A DNA stretch of 64,000 bases. It comes from Eledone cirrhosa. Taxonomy: Eukaryota. Within the stretch, counting starts at the first letter, position 1, and each line of letters begins with the position of its first letter. The notes under the pieces were generated by a model that worked only from the letters and a program-made list of their open reading frames with translations, ran no database searches and had not been told where the DNA came from. Of this stretch, positions 46,651-64,000 are shown piece by piece. Location: assembly GCA_964016885.1 (NCBI GenBank), contig OZ024744.1, positions 103,354,001-103,418,000 of the forward strand, given 5' to 3'. A program made the position numbers and the translations under genes.

Positions 46651-46849
46651 CAAAACTCTTTTGTGACATTGTTTCTACTGCAGTACGTCCTTCTTATAGC
46701 AAACCACCCTTCAGGGTGTATCTGCTGCATCTATTGTTGCATGCTAGTATGGAAAATTGGATGTTAAACAGTGATGAAGATGATGATGTATAAGTAAAGT
46801 GTGTTGGTGTGTTATATAAAAATTAGAAAGGTTCTTTCATACAACTTAC

Positions 46850-46891
46850 CCAATTGAATACCTGCACTCTTATGGGCCAATATAATGACAT
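46850..46891 (-). CDS. Candidate micro-exon 4 (42 nt, phase 1-1), (D)VIILAHKSAGIQL, unknown gene
   Basis: Minus-strand acceptor TCTTTTTATTCCAG and donor TGG|GTAAGT. Length divisible by 3, open in phase 1, paralogous to 51917-51958. Confidence 0.65.
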
Positions 46892-47194
46892 CTGGAATAA
46901 AAAGATCCCGAAGCAAAGAAAATAATATTAGATCTACAATGTATATATATATATTATGTTAGCAGGCATATATGGTGGTTTCTGGATATTGTAATAAAGT
47001 ATCTTAAGTAAATATAGGCTGACTTTAGGGAGAATTGCCTGCTATTTCTAGCGTGCATATTTTCCAGGCATGTCTACAATTGACATCATATAGATGTATG
47101 GTCCTTAAAAGGGAGATTTTGTGTTTGTAATTCACCAAGATAGAAATAGTAACCAACATCCCCTCAAATCCCAGACCACTCTCTTGTATATATG

Positions 47195-47560
47195 TATGTG
47201 TGTATGTATGTTTCTATTTCTCTTAATTCCAAGTACATTTTTGACTGGCCACCTTCCTGGTGGCAAGGTTGTAAAAGAAAGGAAATTGTCATCCCTTGAA
47301 TTGCAAGAATGATGTGGAAATGTTGAAGGTGCCATATATCGCAGCCATTTGTAGTCTATGAATTAGGGAGTTGCGCTCTTTGTCCACAAATCCAAGTTCA
47401 GTTATACTTTGATCCAAGCGAGTTTGTGTATAACCTGTAGTACTACTTAGGATGGGTATGAAGCTGAAGGTGTATCTTGGATACTGAATCTGAAAACTCC
47501 CCATCAATGGCCCGTAGATATGCTCCTTCTCCTATAAAATATCTTGCAACGTTGACATCT
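47195..47560 (-). mobile_element. R4/Dong-clade non-LTR retrotransposon 3' fragment (duplicate of the 53137 copy)
   Basis: Translates to ...QIQYPRYTFSFIPILSSTTGY...LQMAAIYGTFNI, resembling the C-terminus of the R4 restriction-like endonuclease. Near-copy of 53137-53483. Confidence 0.75.
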
Positions 47561-48074
47561 ACAGCCACCTAAGGGTGTGACACCACACAAAACAGAACAA
47601 CAATTCTTCCTACTGATCTTCACAAGTGAAGAATTCTCCATTCTACTCTGGTATGTCCCTTTCTATAGCAAACCACCTTTCAGGATGTACTTGTTGCATT
47701 TATTGTTGCAGTACCACTAAAGTGACAGTCAGATATTGACTCAACTAAAGGATCCTTTCAAGTGAATGAAGTGTGGTTGTGATGGTGGAGAGGTAAAGAG
47801 GATGATAAGTTTGATGTCATGAGAGTAGTGTGATTTGATAGGAAGGAGAAGATGTGACCTCCATTAGGTAAAGAGGATGATAAGTTTGCAGCCATCATGT
47901 ATGTGCCTAGATATTTTTGTTCTACATATATTTCAATGTAGAGCTGTGGGATATACCACAATACATATGAGGTATCTGTCCATCGCTCTACATATGTTCA
48001 GGGGTTTAGATATGAAGTTTCAACTGTATTACATATTTACCAAGATATATATTGGAAAATCCCAATTTCACCAT

Positions 48075-51000
48075 TCTGCTGAAATAGCGGAGATGCTGGA
48101 GAGAAGGCAGGTGGATGCGTTCTGCGTGTAAGAGGTGAGATGGAGAGGTGCCTCTGCGAGACTAGTCGTAGGCAAACGTCTTAGCTATAAGCTATTCTGG
48201 GTAGGTAAGGATGATGGGTTCGGGGGAGTAGACATTTTCCTGGCTGAGAAATGGATCAATAAGACAATAGAGGTAGTTCGAGTTAGTAATCGAATAATTA
48301 AGCTTAGATTAGTTGTAGGCAGGAGACTACTGACAATCATCTCGGCCTATGCTCCCCAAGCAGCCTAGGCAAAGATGAGAAAGACAGCTTTTATGAGCAA
48401 CTTTTGCAAACAACCGCAATGAGAGAGGACGGAGACATCGTTATGCTAGCAAGAGACTTCAATGGTCATGTTAGACAGCTCCAGGATGGTTACACTGGGG
48501 TACATGGTGGGCACGATTACAGTTCAAGAAATGAAGAAGGAGTGAGACTTCTTGAATTTTGTGATGCAGGTACATTGACTATTTGCAACACAAAATTCCA
48601 GAAACCTGCCAATCACCTAATAACCTACAAATCTGGTGAGCACATAAGCCAGATTGACTTCTTACTAGTTAGGCAGCGGGACAGGCTGATAGTGTCTAAT
48701 ATCAAGGCATACCCTGGGGAAGAATGTACCCCACAGCATAGGTTAGTTGTTAGTGATATCTCAGTAAGCAAGAGATGGAATGAGACATATAGGAAGGTGT
48801 GGAGAAGAAAGGTCTGGAAGCTAAAAGACCTTTCACTAAAATACAAATTTAGGAAAGCCCTTCAAGATGTATATGACGAAAAAGAAGACGATTTAGAGAC
48901 GTATGACATAGATAATAACTGGAATTTCATACGTGACAACTTGCTGCAGGCTACTGATGAAACTTGTGGCTCCAACCAGACAGAGAGTGACCTGGTGGTG
49001 GAACAGCACAGTAGATAAGGCTATTAGAGACAAAAGACTAGCATGGAAGGCTTGGAAAAAGGGTGGGAGTAGGGAAGAATATACAGCCACTAAGAGAGAA
49101 GCTAGACGTCAGGTGTACTTAGCATGCAGGGAGGCAGAGAGTAGGAGGTTTGCCAATGTTCTGCGATGGGAAGATCAGAGGCGTGCGGTGTTCCACATTG
49201 CAAGGCAGTGTGTCAATGCAAATAAGGATGTTGTTGGAGATAAATGTGTCCGGGATGATGCCGGTGTACTTAATGTCACGAATGATCAGAAAAAGGAGGC
49301 CTGGAAATGTCATTATGAGAGACTGATGAATGTGGAGAACGAATGGGAGAGAGAGAAATTACCCTTGGTAGATCCGACAGCAGGACCAGCTATTGAGATT
49401 GACGAATATAGGGTCCAAGAGGCGATTAGGGAAATGAAAAATGGTAAGGCTGCCGGACCATCGAGAATAGTTGCTGAGATGCTGAAGGCATCAGGGGACG
49501 TAGGCACTAAACTGGTTGCACGCATCATCAATCAGGCTATATTTGGTGGTGTCATACCCAAAGACTGGTGCAGCAGTATTCTCATAAATTGCTACAAAGG
49601 TAAAGGGGATGCTTTGGAGAGGAGCAATTATAGGGGTATAAAACTGATAGATCAGGTTATGAAAGTGGCAGAAAGGATTTTAGCACAACTAATTAGAGAA
49701 AGTGTCAAACTAGATGAGATGCAGTTTAGTTTTGTGCCTGGGAAGAGTACAACAGATGCCCTCTTCTTGGTGAGACAATTGCAAGAGAGGTTCTTAGAGA
49801 AGAATAAGCCACTATACTTAGCCTTTGTTGACCTAGAGAAGGCCTTTGATAGGGTAACGCGATCTGTCATCTGGTGGTCCCTAAGGAAGCTAGGTGTTGA
49901 GGAATGGCTTGTAAGGACAGTGCAAACTTTGTACAGAGGTACTCTCAGTAAAGTCAGGGTAGGAATGGAGTTTAGTGAGGAATTCCAGATACAAGTAGGA
50001 GTACATCAGGGTTCGGTCCTCAGCCCGCTCTTGTTCATTATAACAGAGGAGTTTAAGACTGGCTGTCCATGGGAACTTCTCTATGCTGACGATCTGGTTC
50101 TTATAGCAGAATCAGTAGAGGAGCTAGAGAATAAATTCTGGCTATGGAAACAGCAGTTGGAAGCAAGAGGACTGAGAGTGAATCTAGCTAAGACAAAAGT
50201 GTTGATGAGTAGAAAAGAGGACAAAACCCTGATTCCGTCAGGGAAATGGCCATGTTCGATATGCAGAAAAGGAACTGGCATAAATTCTATAAAATGCACA
50301 CAATGCAGATCCTGGGTACACAAGATATGTAGCGGGATAGCAGGCAAACTAACAGGTAGGGAGAAATATGTATGCAGTAGATGTACAGGGAAATTAGACA
50401 GTAAAAGTCGCATTGATAGACACATTTTTCAAATGCAGGAGGGTGCTATAGAAGTGGTGGATAGCTTCCGGTACCTAGGAGATCAGATTAGCATGGGAGG
50501 AGGGTGTTCCGAGGCCATAGTATCTAGAATAAGGACGGGTTGGAAGAAGTTTAGGGAGCTGCTTCCTCTGTTGACGAAGAAGGGTTTCTCCCTGCGTACG
50601 AAAGGCCGGTTGTATGATGCCTGTGTGAGGAGCGCGATGCTGCATGGTAGTGAGACATGGGCAGCAACTGCAGAGGATATGCGACTGCTGGAGAGAAATG
50701 AGGCAAGCATGCTCCGTTGGATGTGCAGTGTAAATGTACGTGAACGACCCAGCATAAATGTGTTGAGAGAGAAACTGTGTCTGAGAGGGATAGAATGTAG
50801 TGTACGGGAGAAGAGACTGAGGTGGTATGGACATGTGATGCGCATGGAGGATGACCGATGGGTGAAGAGGTGCCAGGAATTGCCAGTTGAAGGAAGACGT
50901 GGTAGAGGTAGACCACGAAAAACATGGGCGGAGGTGGTGAGAACAGACCTCAGATCATTGAAGCTCACGGTGGAGATGACGAGGGACCGTGACGAGTGGA

Positions 51001-51090
51001 GAGATGCTGTGCTGAATAAGACCCGTCCCACCCTTGCAAGCAGGTAAAGGCGTACGTAAAATGATGATGATGATGGTGATGATAATGATA
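48075..51090 (+). mobile_element. Near-full-length, inactivated RTE-clade LINE (APE endonuclease + RT with PHD-type finger)
   Basis: APE motifs (CV*EVRW, SAYAP, DFNGH, SQIDF, QHRLV) and RT motifs (NYRGIKL, FVDLEKAFD, GVHQGSVLSP, YADD at 50082-50093, FRYLG). Ends in RLRWYGHV...RGRPRKTW and a (GAT)n tail. Lesions: stop at 48129-48131, frameshifts near 48360 and 48970, 15-nt deletion near 50040. Confidence 0.95.
48933..51047 (+). pseudogene. RTE reverse-transcriptase ORF remnant (704-aa open segment)
   Basis: ORF track plus conserved RT motifs. It is frameshifted from the upstream endonuclease and lacks ALQAI relative to the second RTE copy. Confidence 0.9.
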
Positions 51091-51096
51091 TATATA

Positions 51097-51780
51097 TGTA
51101 TAAGTATTTTGTATCTCCACTGCAAAGTGGTCGTGGAGGTGCCACGGCAAAAAAGCACCCAGCACTCACTGTAAATGAGGTTGGTGTTAGGAAGGGCATC
51201 CAACTGTAGAAATCAAGCCAGAATCAGTTCCCGTCCCAGCCTTGCAAGCAGGGAAAAAGCAGACGTAAAATGAAATAAAAAAAAAAAAAAAAAAGGAAAT
51301 ACGGTTTTAGGAAGCCGTAGCTATGCAAACACTGGTGGGCTAACACCCTCTGGTGATGTCCAGCAGAAGCAAGGGGGACAACCGTCTATGCATTTCATAG
51401 CTACGGCTTCCTAAAACTGTATTTCCTTGGAGATACGAAATACTTATACATATTGTATAAAGCTATGCTTGAAGCGAAATCCTATTTCTTTTTATTATAA
51501 GTTGAGCCAACTTATGCAGCTTCATATGCAAATGAGATTAATCACCTCATTTACACAGACGAGAAATGTATATATTCTCAGCTGTCTTCTAGTCTAGCAG
51601 TCGCAAGCGGTGAGTGGGACCGTCCTGGCGAAGACCAGTTATGCCGGAAGTGCATAGACGATTGTCCCCCTTGGTTCTGCTGGACATCACCAGAGGGCGT
51701 TAGCCCCCCCCCCCCCCGGTGTTTGCATAGCTACGGCTTCCTAAAACCGTATTTCCTTGGAGATACGAAATACTTATACA
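51097..51780. mobile_element. Non-autonomous TIR element (MITE-like), termini TGT...ACA, possibly Ginger-type
   Basis: Left TIR (51097-51119 plus 51294-51392) is the reverse complement of 51651-51780. Flanked by TATA on both sides. An extra right-end copy lies at 51396-51450. Confidence 0.75.
51120..51293 (+). mobile_element. Short RTE-related retroelement (SINE or 5'-truncated LINE 3' UTR) with poly(A), inserted in the left TIR
   Basis: Contains GGTTGGTGTTAGGAAGGGCATCC, shared with the 3' UTR of the minus-strand RTE. Its tail CCCGTCCCAGCCTTGCAAGCAGG...ACGTAAAATGA matches the end of the 48075 LINE. It splits the TIR between TCTCCA and AGGAAATACGG. Confidence 0.75.
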
Positions 51781-51916
51781 TATATTATTTGTTGCATTTA
51801 TTGTTGCATGCTAGTATGGAAAAGTGGACGTTAAACAGTGATGAAGATGATGATGTATAAGTAAAGTGTGTTGGTGTGTTATATAAAAATTAGAAAGGTT
51901 CTTTCATACAACTTAC

Positions 51917-51958
51917 CTAATTGAATATCTGAACTATTAGGGTCCAATACAATGTCAT
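51917..51958 (-). CDS. Candidate micro-exon 3 (42 nt, phase 1-1), (D)DIVLDPNSSDIQL
   Basis: Acceptor CCTTTTTATTCCAG and donor TAG|GTAAGT. Phase 1 is open; phases 0 and 2 contain stops. Confidence 0.7.
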   Translation of the reverse strand: MTLYWTLIVQIFN

Positions 51959-52697
51959 CTGGAATAAAAAGGTCCCGAAAAAAAGAAAATAATATTAGAT
52001 CTACAATTTTCAACGTTGACATCTACAGCCACCTAAGGGTGTGACACCACACAAAATAGGACAACAACTCTTCCCACTGATCTTCACAAGTGAAGAATTC
52101 ACCATTCTACTCTGGTATGTCCCTTTCTATAGCAAACCACCTTTCAGGATGTACTTGTTGCATTTATTGTTGCAGTACCACTAAAGTTACAGTCAGATAT
52201 TGACTCAACTAAAGGATCCTTTCAAGTGAATGAAGTGTGGTTGTGATGGTGGAGAGGTAAAGAGGATGATAAGTTTGATGTCATGAGAGTAGTGTGATTT
52301 GATAGGAAGGAGAAGATGTGACCTCCATTACTACGGGGAGATTTACTGCAATGATAGCAACTATTACGATGTGATTGTGGAGGGGGTCATAAATAAGTTT
52401 GAGGTTTTACCATGAAGGTAAGGATCTCTATAAAAGATCTACAGAGGATGGAAGCATATATGTATATATCTACATACATATATATATATCAACATATATA
52501 TATATACATATATATATATATATTAATTCTGAATGAGCAAGACATATTCATCTGTCTCACAACAGGAAAACTTGTCTAACCCATGCTAGCATGGAAATGT
52601 TGACTTTAAACTGTGATGATGATGATGATAATGATATATTAGTAAAGTGTGTTGGTGTGTTATATAACAATTAGAAAAGTTCTTTAATACAACTTAC

Positions 52698-52733
52698 CAC
52701 GTACACTTTCTGGACTAGCAGAGATAGTCTCAG
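52698..52733 (-). CDS. Candidate micro-exon 2 (36 nt, phase 1-1), (A)ETISASPESVR
   Basis: Acceptor CCTTTTTATTCCAG and donor GTG|GTAAGT. Intron flanks are homologous to those of micro-exons 3 and 4. Open in phase 1. Confidence 0.7.
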
Positions 52734-53136
52734 CTGGAATAAAAAGGACCCAAAGAAGAAAATATCAGATCTACATGTATTTATATTTATGTTAGCAGGC
52801 ATATATGGTGGTTTCTGGGTATTGTTATCAAATAAATGTATGTATGTATATATGTAGGAGAAGGCAACTCAGTAAACTGCGATAACTCCGATATAAAACC
52901 TGCGGCTCAGTAGTTACTGATGATGTTGATCTTTTCTCCTTTTCGGGTTATAGCTACTGTGGTTCAGAGAGTGGGATTGGCTCAGTGCACAGTCTTACCT
53001 CACTTTAAAAAATATCTTCATGCACAGGCATTGCACAATAGAATTAATTAATAATTATTAATAATGGTATATCGTGCAATGGCCATACTTGATAACGAGG
53101 GGCAGCCATCATCATATATGTATGTATGAATGTATG

Positions 53137-53927
53137 CTTCTATTTCTCTTAATTCTGTGTACATTTTTGACTGGCCACCTTCCTGGTGGCAAGGTTGTAA
53201 GAGAAAAGAAATTGCCATCCCTTGAATTGCAAGAATGTTTTGCAAATTTTGAAGGTCCCAGCTATTGCAGCCATTTGTAGTATATGAATTAGGGAGCTGC
53301 ACTCTTTGTCCACAAATCCAAGTTCAGTTATACTTTGGTCCAAGCGGGTTATATATATCCTTTAGCTCCAATAATGATGGTTATGAAGCTGAAGGTGTAT
53401 CTTAGATACTGGATCTGCAAACTCCTCATCAATGGTCCGTAGATGTCCTCCTTCTCTTGTATTTTTCTTACAACGTTGACATCAAGTGGGCAGCTGATCT
53501 CTACAACAGAGCACATCTTCAATATGTGGTCCCAAACAACAATATCAGGCCAGTTGTGCTTTAATTTGGTGGCAGTTCTTATTTTCAGGTTACACTAGTA
53601 TTCCATAGTGCCATCTGTCTCAACATATTCCTCCTCATTTGTTTTAAATTTTGGTTCCCTAAGTGCATTCCAGATGGTTCTAGCTATGACATTGTGTCTT
53701 ATAGGGAGGTAGTAACGAGATGACATTCTTTCACAGTCGGCAATAATGAGGCTAACATCTTCATTCTTTGTTTTACATAGCCTACATTTATTGTTGACTG
53801 ATGGCCCTCCTCTTTTGTGTAGCAGATATTTGGTAGGGATTTCTTGTTCCTGTATTGCATAGAGATATCCTTCAAGGTGGGATGTCATAAACTTGTCGGG
53901 ACTCCAAGCCAGGCTTTTTGAATGATC
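53137..53927 (-). mobile_element. 5'-truncated, decayed R4/Dong-clade non-LTR retrotransposon (zinc knuckle + restriction-like endonuclease + 3' UTR)
   Basis: EGYLYAIQEQEIPTK...CRLCKTKNEDVSLIIADC...RHNVIA, then past a stop at 53595 KHNWPDIVVWD...VVEISCP...KEDIYGPL...IIIGAKG...LQMAAIAGTFKICKTFL. This is the usual R4 C-terminal layout. Confidence 0.85.
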
Positions 53928-54037
53928 TATGTATGTATGTGAGTATGTATATATGTATGTGTCTCCATTGAATGCATGTTTGTATGTATGTATATATGTA
54001 GTATGTATGAATGTCTCCATTGGTGTCTCCATTGAAT

Positions 54038-54510: not shown

Positions 54511-56080
54511 ATCATCATCATCATTATCATCAACGTTTAACGTCCGTGTTCCATGCTTGCATGGGTTTGGACGGGAGTTTTCCCACTTGAGGCAAGAGTG
54601 ATTATCTTGCTCGCATAGGACTATCTGGCGGGTTTTCTACAGTTTGATGCCCTTCCTAACACCAACCACATTTACAGTGTGGGGCTGGGAGGTTTTTACC
54701 GTGTTGCCTACACGGCCACATTACAGCGTGGACTGTCTGGCGGGTTTTCTACAGCTGGATGCCCTTCCTAACACCAACCACATTTACAGTGTGGGTCTGG
54801 GAGGTTTTTACCGTGTTGCCTACACGGCCACATTTCAACGTGAAATGTGTTTTTTTGTCGTGACACCTACACGATCTAATTTGTTTCGGCCTGGATGTTG
54901 TGGCACCAACATAACTTTACATTGAAAGGGGCGGTGTGGATGGGGTGGGGGTGGTGGGACGGGGGTGTATTTTGTTAGAGATGCCTACTGACTGTAGTAG
55001 GTTTTACTTTGTATTTAGGTAAGGCAGGTCTTCTCTATTACTGAGTACCGCCAAAGGTCTCGGTCCAGTGACATTGTCTTGGTGATGTGTAAGTGTGTGA
55101 GGTCGGAATTTATCAGCTCGTCCCAGGTCTTTCTGGGTCTGCCTTTTCCGTGGCTACCGTCTATCTTTATTGCCCTGCACTTTGTTATACAGCTATCATC
55201 TTTCATGCGCATCACGTGACCATACCAACGTAGCCTTCTCTCGAGTAAACAACATATGATCCCTCTTATTTCTAATTTTTTCCTTAGTTCGTTTATGCTT
55301 TGCCGTTCACGTATATTACTATTACACATCCAGCGGAGCATGCAAGCTTCGTTTCTCTCTAGTCTGCGTATATCCTCTGCACACATGCCCAGGTCTCACT
55401 GCCATGCAACATTGTTGTTCGTATGCAGGCATCATACAACCTGCCTTTCATTTTTAGGGAGAACCCTTTAGCGGCTAATAGTGGTATAAGCTCTCTGAAC
55501 TTTTTCTATCCAGTTCTGACTCTAGCTACTGTACTTTCAGAGCACCCTCCCCCACTGCTGATTTTGTCACCCAGGTAACGGAAGCTGTCCACTATTTCTA
55601 TAGAACCCTCTGCGCAGTTGAAAGAGCTAGTATTTTGTGGGCACTTGCTGCTACTTATTGCACCAGAGCACCAGCCACATGTAAAATCTATGTTCTTAGT
55701 TAGCTTACCTGTGATCCCACTACATCTTTTATGCACCCATACTTTGCATTTGGGACATAAAATGGAGTTTCTACCTACGCCTTTCCTACACACTGAGCAT
55801 GGCCATTTCCCGGAGGGGACCGGCGCCTTATTTTCTTTCCTACAAACTAGAACTTTAGTCTTAGCCAGGTTAATTTTAAGGCCTTTTGACTCTAGGCCGT
55901 GCTTCCATGTTTGGAATTTCTTCTCTAGCTCGGCCATTGATTCCGCTATGAGTGTCAGGTCGTCTGCGTATAGGAGTTCCCATGGGCAGCCGGTCTTGAA
56001 CTCCTCTGTTATAGCCTGAAGGGCAATAATAAATAGGAGGGGGCTAAGAACAGAGCCCTGATGGACGCCAACTTTTACGC
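54511..56080 (-). mobile_element. 5'-truncated RTE-clade LINE (different subfamily) with long 3' UTR and (GAT)n tail
   Basis: VGVHQGSVLSPLLFIIALQAITEEFKTGCPWELLYADDL, PHD-type CSVC/CPKC/HKRC/CGWC, FRYLG, RLRWYGHV, GRPRKTW. Premature stop at 55506, frameshift near 55400, ORF end at 55015. Confidence 0.93.
54618..54836. repeat. ~112-bp tandem duplication in the RTE 3' UTR
   Basis: GGACTRTCTGGCGGGTTTTCTACAG...CACGGCCACATTT starts at both 54618 and 54730. Confidence 0.9.
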
Positions 56081-56618: not shown

Positions 56619-56678
56619 CTTCATCTGGGGTAATACAATCACATGTAATACACTCGCGATCATCTATGATGCCGAAGT
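56619..56678 (-). CDS. Candidate small exon 1 (60 nt, phase 1-1), (x)FGIIDDRECITCDCITPDE
   Basis: Acceptor TATATTTCAG and donor AAG|GTCAGT. Only phase 1 is stop-free, and it splices in frame to micro-exon 2. Confidence 0.6.
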
Positions 56679-57284: not shown

Positions 57285-60200
57285 AGGTGTGTATATCACC
57301 AACACCAGGTAGGTTATCATGTTTATGACACAGAAGAATATAGTAGGTGTGTATATCACTAACACCAGGTAGGTTATCATGTTTATGACATAGAAGAATG
57401 TAGTAGGTGTGTATATCACTAACACTAGGTAGGTTATCATGTTTATGACATAGAAGAATGTAGTAGGTGTGTATATCACTAACACCAGGTAGGTTATCAT
57501 GTTTATGACATAGAAGAATGTAGTAGGTGTGTATATCACTAACACCAGGTAGGTTATCATGTTTATGACATAGAAGAATGTAGTAGGTGTGTATATCACT
57601 AACACCAGGTAGGTTATCATGTTTATGACATAGAAGAATGTAGTAGGTGTGTATATCACTAACACCAGGTAGGTTATCATGTTTATGACATAGAAGAATG
57701 TAGTAGGTGTGTATATCACCAACACTAGGTAGGTTATCATGTTTATGACATAGAAGAATGTAGTAGGTGTGTATATCACCAACACTAGGTAGGTTATCAT
57801 GTTTATGACATAGAAGAATGTAGTAGGTGTGTATATCACTAACACCAGGTAGGTTATCATGTTTATGACATAGAAGAATGTAGTAGGTGTGTATATCACT
57901 AACACCAGGTAGGTTATCATGTTTATGACATAGAAGAATGTAGTAGGTGTGTATATCACCAACACTAGGTAGGTTATCATGTTTATGACATAGAAGAATG
58001 TAGTAGGTGTGTATATCACCAACACTAGGTAGGTTATCATGTTTATGACATAGAAGAATGTAGTAGGTGTGTATATCACCAACACTAGGTAGGTTATCAT
58101 GTTTATGACATAGAAGAATGTAGTAGGTGTGTATATCACCAACACTAGGTAGGTTATCATGTTTATGACATAGAAGAATGTAGTAGGTGTGTAAACCACC
58201 AACACTAGGTAGGTTATCATGTTTATGACACAGAAGAATGTAGTAGGTGTGTATATCACTAACACCAGGTAGGTTATCATGTTTATGACACAGAAGAATG
58301 TAGTAGGTGTGTATATCACCAACACTAGTTAGGTTATCATGTTTATGACACAGAAGAATGTAGTAGGTGTGTATATCACTAACACCAGGTAGGTTATCAT
58401 GTTTATGACATAGAAGAATGTAGTAGGTGTGTATATCACCAACACTAGGTAGGTTATCATGTTTATGACATAGAAGAATGTAGTAGGTGTGTATATCACC
58501 AACACTAGGTAGGTTATCATGTTTATGACATAGAAGAATATAGTAGCTGTGTATATCACCAACACTACGTAGGTTATCATGTTTATGACACAGAAGAATG
58601 TAGTAGGTGTGTATATCACCAACACTAGGTAGGTTATCATGTTTATGACATAGAAGAATGTAGTAGGTGTGTATATCACCAACACTAGGTAGGTTATCAT
58701 GTTTATGACATAGAAGAATATAGTAGCTGTGTATATCACCAACACTAGGTAGGTTATCATGTTTATGACATAGAAGAATGTAGTAGGTGCGTATATCACC
58801 AACACTAGGTAGGTTATCATGTTTATGACATAGAAGAATGTAGTAGGTGTGTATATCACCAACACTAGGTAGTTTATCATGTTTATGACATAGAAGAATG
58901 TAGTAGGTGTGTATGTCACCAACACTAGGTAGGTTATCATGTTTATGACATAGAAGAATGTAGTAGGTGTGTATATCACTAACACCAGGCAGGTTATAAT
59001 GTTTATGACACAGAAGAATGTAGTAGGTGTGTATATCACCAACACTAGGTAGGTTATCATGTTTATGACACAGAAGAATGTAGTAGGTGTGTATATCACC
59101 AACACTAGGTAGGTTATCATGTTTATGACACAGAAGAATGTAGTAGGTGTGTATATCACCAACACTAGGTAGATTATCATGTTTATGACATAGAAGAATG
59201 TAGTAGGTGTGTATATCACCAACACTAGGTAGGTTATCATGTTTATGACACAGAAGAATGTAGTAGGTGTGTATATCACCAACACTAGGTAGGTTATCAT
59301 GTTTATGACACAGAAGAATGTAGTAGGTGTGTAAATCACCAACACTAGGTAGGTTATCATGTTTATGACACAGAAGAATGTAGTAGGTGTGTATATCACT
59401 AACACCAGGTAGTTTATCATGTTTATGACACTGAAGAATGTAGTAGGTGTGTATATCACCAACACTAGGTAGGTTATCATGTTTATGACACAGAAGAATG
59501 TAGTAGGTGTGTATATCACCAACACTAGGTAGATTATCATGTTTATGACATAGAAGAATGTAGTAGGTGTGTATATCACTAACACTAGGTAGGTTATCAT
59601 GTTTATGACACAGAAGAATGTAGTAGGTGTGTATATCACTAACACCAGGTAGGTTATCATGTTTATGACATAGAAGAATGTAGTAGGTGTGTATATCACT
59701 AACACTAGGTAGTTTATCATGTTTATGACACTGAAGAATGTAGTAGGTGTGTATATCACCAACACTAGGTAGGTTATCATGTTTATGACACAGAAGAATG
59801 TAGTAGGTGTGTATATCACCAACACTAGGTAGATTATCATGTTTATGACATAGAAGAATGTAGTAGGTGTGTATATCACCAACACTAGGTAGGTTATCAT
59901 GTTTATGACACTGAAGAATGTAGTAGGTGTGTATATCACCAACACTAGGTAGGTTATCATGTTTATGACACAGAAGAATGTAGTAGGTGTGTATATCACC
60001 AACACTAGGTAGATTATCATGTTTATGACATAGAAGAATGTAGTAGGTGTGTATATCACCAACACTAGGTAGGTTATCATGTTTATGACATAGAAGAATG
60101 TAGTAGGTGTGTATATCACCAACACTAGGTAGATTATCATGTTTATGACACAGAAGAATGTAGTAGGTGTGTATATCACCAACACTAGGTAGGTTATCAT

Positions 60201-63200
60201 GTTTATGACACAGAACAATATAGTAGGTGTGTATATCACCAACACTAGGTAGGTTATCATGTTTATGACATAGAAGAATGTAGTAGGTGTGTATATCACC
60301 AACACTAGGTAGGTTATCATGTTTATGACACAGAAGAATGTAGTAGGTGTGTATATCACCAACACTAGGTAGGTTATCATGTTTATGACATAGAAGAATG
60401 TAGTAGGTGTGTAAATCACCAACACTAGGTAGGTTATCATGTTTATGACACAGAAGAATGTAGTAGGTGTGTAAATCACCAACACTAGGTAGGTTATCAT
60501 GTTTATGACATAGAAGAATGTAGTAGGTGTGTATATCACCAACACTGGGTAGGTTATCATGTTTATGACATAGAAGAATGTAGTAGGTGTGTATATCACC
60601 AACACTAGGTAGGTTATCATGTTTATGACACAGAAGAATGTAGTAGGTGTGTATATCACCAACACTAGGTAGGTTATCATGTTTATGACACAGAAGAATG
60701 TAGTAGGTGTGTAAATCACTAACACTAGGTAGGTTATCATGTTTATGACATAGAAGAATGTAGTAGGTGTGTATATCACCAACACTAGGTAGGTTATCAT
60801 GTTTATGACATTGAAGAATGTAGTAGGTGTGTAAATCGCTAACACTAGGTAGGTTATCATGTTTATGACATAGAAGAATGTAGTAGGTGTGTATATCACC
60901 AACACTAGGTAGGTTATCATGTTTATGACACAGAAGAATGTAGTAGGTGTGTATGTCACCAACACTAGGTAGGTTATCATGTTTATGACATAGAAGAATG
61001 TAGTAGGTGTGTATATCACCAACACTAGGTAGGTTATCATGTTTATGACACAGAAGAATGTAGTAGGTGTGTATGTCACCAACACTAGGTAGGTTATCAT
61101 GTTTATGACATAGAAGAATGTAGTAGGTGTGTATATCACCAACACTAGGTAGGTTATCATGTTTATGACACAGAAGAATGTAGTAGGTGTGTATGTCACC
61201 AACACTAGGTAGGTTATCATGTTTATGACATAGAAGAATGTAGTAGGTGTGTATATCACCAACACTAGGTAGGTTATCATGTTTATGACACAGAAGAATG
61301 TAGTAGGTGTGTATATCACCAACACTAGGTAGGTTATCATGTTTATGACATTGAAGAATGTAGTAGGTGTGTAAATCGCTAACACTAGGTAGGTTATCAT
61401 GTTTATGACATAGAAGAATGTAGTAGGTGTGTATATCACCAACACTAGGTAGGTTATCATGTTTATGACACAGAAGAATGTAGTAGGTGTGTATGTCACC
61501 AACACTAGGTAGGTTATCATGTTTATGACACAGAAGAATGTAGTAGGTGTGTATGTCACCAACACTAGGTAGGTTATCATGTTTATGACATAGAAGAATG
61601 TAGTAGGTGTGTATATCACCAACACTAGGTAGGTTATCATGTTTATGACACAGAAGAATGTAGTAGGTGTGTATGTCACCAACACTAGGTAGGTTATCAT
61701 GTTTATGACATAGAAGAATGTAGTAGGTGTGTATATCACCAACACTAGGTAGGTTATCATGTTTATGACATAGAAGAATGTAGTAGGTGTGTATATCACC
61801 AACACTAGGTAGGTTATCATGTTTATGACATAGAAGAATGTAGTAGGTGTCTATATCACCAACACTAGGTAGGTTATCATGTTTATGACATAGAAGAATG
61901 TAGTAGGTGTGTATATCACCAACACTAGGTAGGGTATCATGTTTATGACATAGAAGAATGTCGTAGGTGTGTATATCACCAACACTAGGTAGGTTATCAT
62001 ATTTATGACACAGAAGAATGTAGTAGGTGTGTATATCACCAACACTAGGTAGGTTATCATGTTTATGACATAGAAGAATGTAGTAGGTGTGTATATCACC
62101 AACACTAGGTAGGTTATCATGTTTATGACATAGAAGAATGTAGTAGGTGTGTATATCACCAACACTAGGTAGGTTATCATGTTTATGACACAGAAGAATG
62201 TAGTAGGTGTGTATATCACCATCACTAGGTAGGTTATCATGTTTATGACATAGAAGAATGTAGTAGGTGTGTATATCACTAACACTAGGTAGATTATCAT
62301 GTTTATGACATAGAAGAATGTAGTAGGTGTGTATATCACCAACACTAGGTAGGTTATCATGTTTATGACATAGAAGAATGTAGTAGGTGTGTATATCACC
62401 AACACTAGGTAGGTTATCATGTTTATGACACAGAAGAATGTAGTAGGTGTGTATATCACCAACACTAGGTAGGTTATCATATTTATGACATAGAAGAATG
62501 TAGTAGGTGTGTATATCACCAACACTAGGTAGGTTATCATGTTTATGACATAGAAGAATATAGTAGCTGTGTATATCACCAACACTAGGTAGGTTATCAT
62601 GTTTATGACATAGAAGAATATAGTAGGTGTGTATATCACTAACACTAGGTAGGTTATCATGTTTATGACATAGAAGAATGTAGTAGGTGTGTATATCACC
62701 AACACTAGGTAGGTTATCATGTTTATGACACAGAAGAATGTAGTAGGTGTGTATATCACCAACACTAGGTAGATTATCATGTTTATGACATAGAAGAATG
62801 TAGTAGGTGTGTATATCACCAACACTAGGTAGGTTATCATGTTTATGACACTGAAGAATGTAGTAGGTGTGTATATCACCAACACTAGGTAGGTTATCAT
62901 GTTTATGACACAGAAGAATGTAGTAGGTGTGTATATCACCAACACTAGGTAGATTATCATGTTTATGACACAGAAGAATGTAGTAGGTGTGTAAATCACC
63001 AACACTAGGTAGGTTATCATGTTTATGACATAGAAGAATGTAGTAGGTGTGTATATCACCAACACTGGGTAGGTTATCATGTTTATGACATAGAAGAATG
63101 TAGTAGGTGTGTATATCACCAACACTAGGTAGGTTATCATGTTTATGACACAGAAGAATGTAGTAGGTGTGTATATCACCAACACTAGGTAGGTTATCAT

Positions 63201-64000
63201 GTTTATGACACAGAAGAATGTAGTAGGTGTGTAAATCACTAACACTAGGTAGGTTATCATGTTTATGACATAGAAGAATGTAGTAGGTGTGTATATCACC
63301 AACACTAGGTAGGTTATCATGTTTATCACATTGAAGAATGTAGTAGGTGTGTAAATCGCTAACACTAGGTAGGTTATCATGTTTATGACATAGAAGAATG
63401 TAGTAGGTGTGTATATCACCAACACTAGGTAGGTTATCATGTTTATGACACAGAAGAATGTAGTAGGTGTGTATGTCACCAACACTAGGTAGGTTATCAT
63501 GTTTATGACATAGAAGAATGTAGTAGGTGTGTATATCACCAACACTAGGTAGGTTATCATGTTTATGACACAGAAGAATGTAGTAGGTGTGTATGTCACC
63601 AACACTAGGTAGGTTATCATGTTTATGACATAGAAGAATGTAGTAGGTGTGTATATCACCAACACTAGGTAGGTTATCATGTTTATGACACAGAAGAATG
63701 TAGTAGGTGTGTATGTCACCAACACTAGGTAGGTTATCATGTTTATGACATAGAAGAATGTAGTAGGTGTGTATATCACCAACACTAGGTAGGTTATCAT
63801 GTTTATGACACAGAAGAATGTAGTAGGTGTGTATATCACCAACACTAGGTAGGTTATCATGTTTATGACATTGAAGAATGTAGTAGGTGTGTAAATCGCT
63901 AACACTAGGTAGGTTATCATGTTTATGACATAGAAGAATGTAGTAGGTGTGTATATCACCAACACTAGGTAGGTTATCATGTTTATGACACAGAAGAATG
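57285..64000. repeat. 60-bp tandem satellite, right array (~112 monomers, continues beyond right edge)
   Basis: Same consensus and orientation as the left array. Begins at monomer position 12, shows no indels and has private variants (ACCAGG, CTGAAG, AATCGCT). Confidence 0.99.

Follow-up and report, generated by a model that had tools for sequence, protein, structure and literature searches.

The window analysed here comprises 64 kb (G000:C28:103354001-103418000) of a 3.0-Gb genome, and about 53 kb of it consists of a 60-bp tandem repeat (positions 1-46503 and 57285-64000). Positions 1-46503 form the right-hand part of a 170-kb array of 2832 units, and positions 57285-64000 form the left-hand part of a 22.5-kb array of 374 units. 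Several micro-exons are predicted in the 11 kb between the two arrays, where LINE pieces are found as well. On the minus strand these are A1 (46850-46891) and A2 (51917-51958), each 42 nt long, the 36-nt exon A3 (52698-52733), all three in phase 1-1, and exon C (56619-56678), a 60-nt cassette with two cysteines that is one of the five C copies of the predicted gene. The intron flanks around A1 (46719-46940) are present in a second copy at 51786-52007. A duplicated intronic block at 47544-47866 differs from its counterpart at 52008-52330 at 7 of 323 positions, so that intron divergence could be estimated independently of the flanks. A LINE insertion on the plus strand (48075-51074), with endonuclease, RVT_1 and PHD, interrupts the intron that separates A2 from A1.

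The 60-bp repeat was also considered as one giant exon with coding function, a reading that was discarded because 6 of 6 possible stop alleles occur in one of its open frames and 4 of 7 in the other, and because silent alleles are represented as often as replacement alleles. The satellite is therefore non-coding. The paralogous modules showed just two to four matches to the 60-bp unit. Degenerate intronic repeats of about 115 bp beside the exons were also rejected as coding sequence, as they have stops in every frame and copies elsewhere in the genome.

Symmetric cassettes in a common reading frame

A splice-flank pattern applied genome-wide gave seven matches, five in this cluster and two on C4 and C5. 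Searching C28:103.104-103.818 Mb and 102.68-102.80 Mb with donor-side intron profiles yielded 61 cassettes, or 45 distinct ones once a 17-copy array was collapsed; a further 54-nt cassette was found later and is outside this count. Acceptors were chosen by a frame-blind score, and some seeds came from a candidate listing that showed open-frame ones only. Before the open-frame filter, the scan had counted 74 candidates with strong sites and a length not above 90 nt, array copies included, and 55 of these were divisible by three. The length was divisible by three in 39 of the 45 distinct cassettes (p=2e-13), and 40 of the 45 were open in phase 1, whereas phase 0 was open in 19 and phase 2 in 8. 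A few cassettes elsewhere are off-frame. The initial annotation had cited the match between the divergence peak and the predicted exon boundaries as independent support for its exon calls; these calls are also supported by the phase-1 symmetry of the cassettes, by their lengths being multiples of three and by the single open frame. A snoRNA-host gene with conserved introns and free exons was considered and dropped on the same frame statistics. The cassettes are bounded by AG and GT, and their donor flanks are alike across cassette families, so that all cassettes probably descend from one ancestral unit.

From this arrangement we infer a minus-strand gene that would extend from C28:103492148 to about 103136540, with a start exon followed by a series of symmetric cassettes and, at the end, a stop exon. 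It would span 356 kb, about 193 kb of which is intronic 60-bp satellite. The 170-kb array fills the predicted 171-kb intron right after A1, and the 22.5-kb array is located within the predicted intron before exon C. The chain comprises 37 phase-1 cassettes on the minus strand between C28:103487431 and 103158614, to which the window contributes four (C, A3, A2 and A1). The cassettes are 18-66 nt long, with five of the 37 not exceeding 36 nt, and join to 621 codons without a stop. Four endings were tested, all of which stop, giving a product of 662-685 aa if every exon is used. In the adjacent plus-strand gene, a TAA occupies the same position of the matching exon. The splice scan revealed no long constant exon among strong-site candidates up to 260 nt; weaker or longer exons could escape it.

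Its location and its donor were the basis for assigning the candidate start exon. Surrounded by CpG-rich low-copy sequence 4.6 kb upstream of the first cassette, this exon consists of 40 codons and one base and ends in the family donor. Met is its first residue, and three Cys fall within the first ten. An initial search for start exons of hydrophobic character had given none that stood up to inspection. The candidate has no paralogue in the genome. Its best 9-residue hydropathy is 1.9, and this hydrophobic stretch, which is not preceded by a basic n-region, would be compatible with a short signal peptide. Paralogous start exons begin acidic or basic. The predicted chain contains no transmembrane segment (maximum 19-residue hydropathy 1.28), and the non-array exons show no strong disorder bias (order-promoting 0.40, disorder-promoting 0.40). 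The product is predicted to be a long row of short segments with no known fold and is probably largely unstructured. A TGACGTCA motif is located 154 nt before the ATG of the gene; it also precedes 16 of the 17 start exons of the family and none of three neighbouring ones, and is too weak to use.

Paralogous loci and database searches

A paralogous gene is arranged head to head with the predicted gene on the plus strand (103553482 to about 103761400) and has its own start exon of 45 codons. A start exon near-identical to that of the plus-strand gene is located at 102.78 Mb, and a broken one, with two TGA, at 102.73 Mb. Intron 1 of the plus-strand gene matches six other C28 loci (80% over 67 nt, E=1.7e-6), all belonging to a set of 17 start-exon matches on C28, C18 and C159. 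The donor profile derived from the A1/A2 cluster lands on the exon ends of this 17-copy start-exon family. Two genes at 45.2 Mb hold 66 cassettes; the length is a multiple of three in 65 of them, and phase 1 is open in 65. The start-exon proteins of the two branches are just 22% identical. Architecture and flanks are common to both, and the A1/A2 cluster is probably a diverged branch of the start-exon family distributed over C28, C18 and C159.

Seven family pieces, the gene's own start exon included, gave no Pfam match above cut-off when used as single-exon queries, and no Pfam match to Olduvai (DUF1220) was obtained on the exons scanned. Protein searches, which covered longer proteins only, returned no homologue of the C-family alignment (a partly intron-derived query), of the start exon of the plus-strand gene or of the family start-exon alignment. 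A 27% identity between the 57-nt array exon, again a partly intron-derived query, and an unnamed repeat protein (P0001) was taken as chance. The ESM Atlas gave no usable match for two start exons. A literature search of partial coverage revealed nothing on such a gene in cephalopods; the gene tables of cephalopod genome papers could list the family. The parts of the octopus microexon literature covered contain nothing on the A1/A2 locus.

Divergence of the A1/A2 pair

The initial annotation had described duplicated micro-exons that diverged far more than their introns, and all of its figures proved correct on recount. A1 and A2, bordered on the minus strand by TTCCAG and GTAAGT, differ at 8 of 42 nt. 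Read in phase 1, these changes are V/D, I/V, A/D, H/P, K/N, A/S, G/D and one silent Leu change, that is, seven replacements and one synonymous difference. On the donor side none of 87 nt differ (46763-46849 versus 51830-51916), and on the acceptor side 3 of 49 do. The Fisher test suggested there, 8/42 versus 3/136, gave p=5.1e-4. These 136 nt are the best-conserved part of the flanks; the next 44 nt carry five differences and the adjoining duplicated block seven in 323. Over the wider duplicated intron of 503 nt the difference between exon and intron was still evident (8/42 versus 15/503, p=1.3e-4).

Polarisation with the copy at C28:103453870 as outgroup placed six of the eight changes on A1. 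The exon at 52698-52733 (A3) had been presented as the third paralog of the pair. It is indeed a 36-nt copy, and its actual sister is the copy at C28:103224077, outside the window. Taken by itself, the A1/A2 pair gave an omega of 2.9 that was not significantly above 1 (p=0.33); the pair alone therefore cannot show selection. Three sequencing runs, all of one sample, behaved like genomic DNA, and their matches were dominated by repeats.

Tests for selection on the cassette families

Codons and introns were modelled with a common mutation process, in which synonymous (rS) and replacement (rN) sites had separate rates, both scaled to the intron rate. For the A family, with all five copies placed on a tree and no choice of pairs, the test on 13 codons gave rS=0.87 (p=0.91 versus the intron rate), rN=11.3 and omega=13 (p=0.0011). 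Neutral simulation under four parameter sets produced a synonymous share of 0.22-0.26 versus the 0.126 observed (P=0.002-0.03). Seven alignable pairs from five families, picked after the alignments were seen, gave rS=1.1, rN=5.2 and omega=4.7 (p=0.001). When all 11 pairs including these seven were used, omega was 2.2 (p=0.013) and rS 3.2 (p=0.0025). Mismatches in the alignable pairs were distributed 24/24/13 over codon positions 1, 2 and 3 (third position 13/61, p=0.03).

Other comparisons gave lower values. Omega of the C family was 1.4 with five copies (p=0.41; rS 2.5) and 2.0 with four (p=0.2). Blind pairing by flanks, in which 11 of 18 pairs were kept at a flank divergence below 0.15, resulted in an omega of 1.57 (p=0.1) and an rS of 5.7. 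The four equal-length pairs among them gave 1.45 (p=0.33), and removal of four saturated pairs raised omega to 3.2 (p=0.004). In the 45-Mb branch, where pairs were chosen by flank likeness, pN was 0.082 versus a pS of 0.072 (p=0.70), with a flank value of 0.040. The 57-nt exon of the 17-copy array behaved in the opposite way. Among 15 of the 17 copies, 2 of 57 exon columns were variable versus 138 of 820 intron columns (p=0.005). This exon is thus more conserved than its introns, and selection accordingly acts on exon sequence both to conserve and to diversify it.

The comparison of dN, dS and intronic divergence across paralogous modules that the initial annotation had proposed accordingly had a mixed outcome: a significant replacement excess was obtained in the A family and among the chosen pairs, and in neither the C family, the full set of blind pairs nor the 45-Mb branch. 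Given this unevenness, the models demonstrate strong positive selection on the predicted exons of the A family and make it probable for some other cassette families; it is not a general property. Older pairs may be affected by misalignment, by in-frame replacement or by conversion of the flanks.

Discussion

We consider it likely that A1 and A2 are coding micro-exons of a large, probably octopod gene, as predicted, and that its cassettes were copied with their flanks and then split by positive selection. Each duplication would have taken in a cassette and its intron flanks, and the probable mechanism is unequal recombination between introns filled with repeats. Owing to the phase symmetry, any cassette could be gained, lost or skipped without a break in the frame. 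After copying, selection would push some copies apart in their amino acids. In the start exons, Cys residues stand in moderately hydrophobic or basic surroundings, and no signal peptide is clearly recognisable; these features would fit a cytoplasmic protein that is acylated and tethered to a membrane. The Cys-rich N-terminus of the predicted product may be of the S-acylation motif type. The product would likely be cytoplasmic, held at the membrane by this S-acylated N-terminus, and may expose a series of short, variable segments for binding to a partner that itself changes; divergence of this kind implies such a partner.

Giant introns filled with satellite and ampliconic, fast-evolving intracellular genes are known from the testes of other animals. 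Solely because of these parallels, we tentatively favour the germ line or sperm as the setting, while a role as immune bait or decoy ranks behind it as a weaker candidate. The analogy with venom, immune and gamete-recognition genes drawn in the initial annotation has so far found no support: the predicted start exon shows no clear signal peptide, and the searches gave no known family or homologue. A bolder proposal, which we regard as speculative and rather unlikely, is that octopods independently evolved a diversity generator similar to the micro-exon genes (MEGs) of schistosomes. Dozens of interchangeable selected exons derived from one cassette would then encode a membrane-tethered intracellular protein, be skipped in combinations that would provide every cell or animal with its own string of binding segments for an arms race, for example in sperm or immunity, and be transcribed through a 170-kb satellite intron.

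Selection on the exons and intron-restricted gene conversion had both been put forward for the divergence pattern. If conversion homogenised the flanks, old neutral or swapped exons that escaped it would merely look fast. Several observations fit this explanation, which we nevertheless judge improbable: synonymous sites of older pairs outrun introns too (rS 3.2 and 5.7, and 2.5 for the five C copies), the identical 87-nt donor flank of A1/A2 gives way to 44 nt with five differences, and both pN and pS of the flank-chosen 45-Mb pairs (0.082 and 0.072) exceed the flank value of 0.040. However, intron-only conversion predicts fast synonymous sites, and those of the A family evolve at the intron rate (0.87-fold, p=0.91), so that selection is favoured there. 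Conversion would also need repeated stops at both exon edges, and the divergence of intron blocks hundreds of bases away from exons does not exceed that of the flanks (7/323, 12/478 and 44/1467). Conversion or exon replacement may still contribute in older pairs. A less probable account assumes real exons under relaxed constraint (omega close to 1) that encode a floppy repeat protein expanding through additional copies, the flanks being slow on account of splice signals. The 45-Mb branch fits this account, omega of the C family is not significantly above 1, and the flanks used, 30-110 nt in length, do include splice signals. The A-family omega of 13, in contrast, is derived from exon sites and survives simulation, and intron DNA farther from the exons evolves no faster than the flanks.

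That the cassettes are non-coding repeat pieces, parts of a dead gene or assembly errors is very improbable, even though no homologue was found, one intron measures 171 kb, the setting is rich in transposable elements, one paralogous start exon is broken by two TGA and a few cassettes elsewhere are off-frame. It is opposed by the length and frame statistics, the 621 stop-free codons, the third-position deficit (13/61, p=0.03) and the exon conservation in the 17-copy array; random assembly errors would not favour replacement sites. We give least credence to an exon-confined mutational bias that mimics selection, be it GC-biased conversion, CpG decay or the copying back of A-to-I-edited cDNA. 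Five of the eight polarised A1/A2 changes are indeed AT-to-GC, and GC-biased conversion can inflate dN/dS according to the parts of PMC2631073 considered here. The same parts describe a bias that extends into the flanks, whereas the flanks are slow at this locus. Moreover, exons are likewise enriched in changes that GC bias cannot affect (20/303 versus 9/690, p=1.7e-5), CpG-type transitions account for only 5 and transversions for 40 of 61 exon changes, and A/G changes make up 8 of 36 in equal-length pairs. Positive selection on duplicated, predicted coding cassettes remains our preferred reading, most firmly for the A family.

Similarity-based annotation would miss such a gene, because no exon after the first exceeds 66 nt and one intron consists of 171 kb of satellite. 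The locus holds diversifying (A), intermediate (C) and homogenised (17-copy array) cassettes side by side and would allow a direct test of exon fate after duplication. The tissue in which the gene is expressed would indicate an unknown molecular conflict in cephalopods.

Comparison with known systems

Dscam and TEP/alpha-2-macroglobulin are arms-race genes in which arrays of duplicated variable exons provide mutually exclusive inserts in a large constant scaffold. The predicted gene resembles them in its arrays of duplicated variable exons; the splice scan of strong-site candidates up to 260 nt, which weaker or longer exons could escape, found no long constant exon in it. Snake-venom exons reportedly evolve faster than their introns, as is said of PLA2 genes in the work of Nakashima. 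Near-identical introns of paralogues combined with diverging coding sequence are a feature shared with the octopod locus, and the introns of snake SVMP paralogues are given as 88-99% identical in the parts of PMC4963849 considered. Venom genes, however, are whole-gene duplicates for secreted folded toxins, whereas the unit here is a single exon of 6-22 residues inside one gene, and no toxin scaffold was found by Pfam in the seven pieces used as single-exon queries. NBPF/Olduvai is a lineage-specific family that, like the octopod gene, grew by tandem copies of coding blocks, with dosage selection stressed in the portion of the report considered (bioRxiv 10.1101/2021.07.06.450945). In contrast, several cassette families described here change in sequence, and the exons scanned gave no Olduvai match.

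The closest parallels are found in the schistosome MEGs, whose characteristics include secreted or surface-anchored products and variant transcripts produced by exon skipping. According to the parts of PMC4350168 and PMC8293314 considered, the MEG coding region consists mostly of small symmetric exons, with recent duplications, a TE-rich setting and raised dN/dS. The octopod locus likewise combines symmetric exons divisible by three (37 consecutive ones in one frame; 39/45 distinct cassettes) with recent duplications, a TE-rich setting and a raised dN/dS, which reaches an omega of 13 in the A family (p=0.001) and is uneven elsewhere. The same sections state that MEG exons are mainly 36 bp or less (PMC8293314), that all MEGs have a signal peptide, that omega of the mature part reaches up to about 1.1, and that MEGs are restricted to flatworms (PMC4350168, PMC8293314). 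Unlike these, just 5 of the 37 predicted octopod exons are 36 nt or shorter, no signal peptide is evident in the candidate start exon, and omega of the A family is about 13. Furthermore, the exons are all copies of a common ancestral cassette and belong to a free-living mollusc. Since most exons exceed 36 bp and a clear signal peptide is lacking, we do not class the predicted gene as a MEG, although it would be MEG-like in its working. If spliced as predicted, it would be a case of strong diversifying selection acting on a micro-exon gene of a free-living mollusc, whereas genes of this design have been described as confined to parasitic flatworms.

Satellite arrays and mobile elements

The 60-bp satellite unit is expanded within two introns of the predicted minus-strand micro-exon gene (coordinates refer to contig OZ024744.1 unless given as window positions). 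One array of 2832 units extends over 103230234–103400635 (window part 1–46503) and another of 374 units over 103411293–103433790 (window part 57285–64000); paralogous introns displayed only 2–4 matches to the unit. Two minus-strand frames remain without stops over up to 10,158 codons. Despite these long open frames, the array as coding sequence was ruled out by the allele spectrum. Mobile elements occupy the region between the arrays (window positions): a plus-strand LINE with RVT_1 and PHD domains (48075–51074), a second fragment of similar type on the minus strand (55196–56077), fragments of another non-LTR element (47188–47559 and 53114–53930 (minus strand)) together with a small element whose ends are inverted (51293–51783).

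Probable members of the micro-exon family

A paralogous micro-exon gene lies head-to-head on the plus strand (103553482–103761405), with an acidic start exon of 45 codons and about 15 cassettes, i.e. micro-exons copied with their intron flanks. At 45.15–45.30 Mb, an inverted pair of genes carries 60/66-nt exons by the dozen with abundant Ser-Pro-Arg motifs, pN being approximately equal to pS. Their start exon, basic and Cys-bearing, has 17 matches spread over this contig and two others (C18 and C159). A perfect TGACGTCA motif at 103492302 is close to the predicted start of the main gene, and the motif is located about 450–640 nt upstream of the start exon in 16 of the 17 family matches; it occurs 6 times across 714 kb of the local region.

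Seventeen tandem modules of about 2.5 kb, each containing one 57-nt exon, were found at 103168521–103216126, and the exon is better conserved than its own introns. In one module the exon acceptor is lost and a cryptic in-frame acceptor is present.

Homologous candidate terminal exons are located at 102738860 (plus strand) and 103761860 (minus strand). The plus-strand gene ends tail-to-tail with the latter, which suggests an additional minus-strand family member starting above 103765223.

Splice signals of the predicted main gene

The donor of the 18-nt cassette at 103476068–103476085 is GC and that of its sister cassettes GT. The predicted stop exon (103136536–103136583) is followed by a good donor. 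A stop less than 50 nt ahead of an exon junction permits escape from nonsense-mediated decay. By this rule the phase-2 ending of the predicted main gene would escape decay, because its stop lies less than 50 nt before the stop-exon donor junction.
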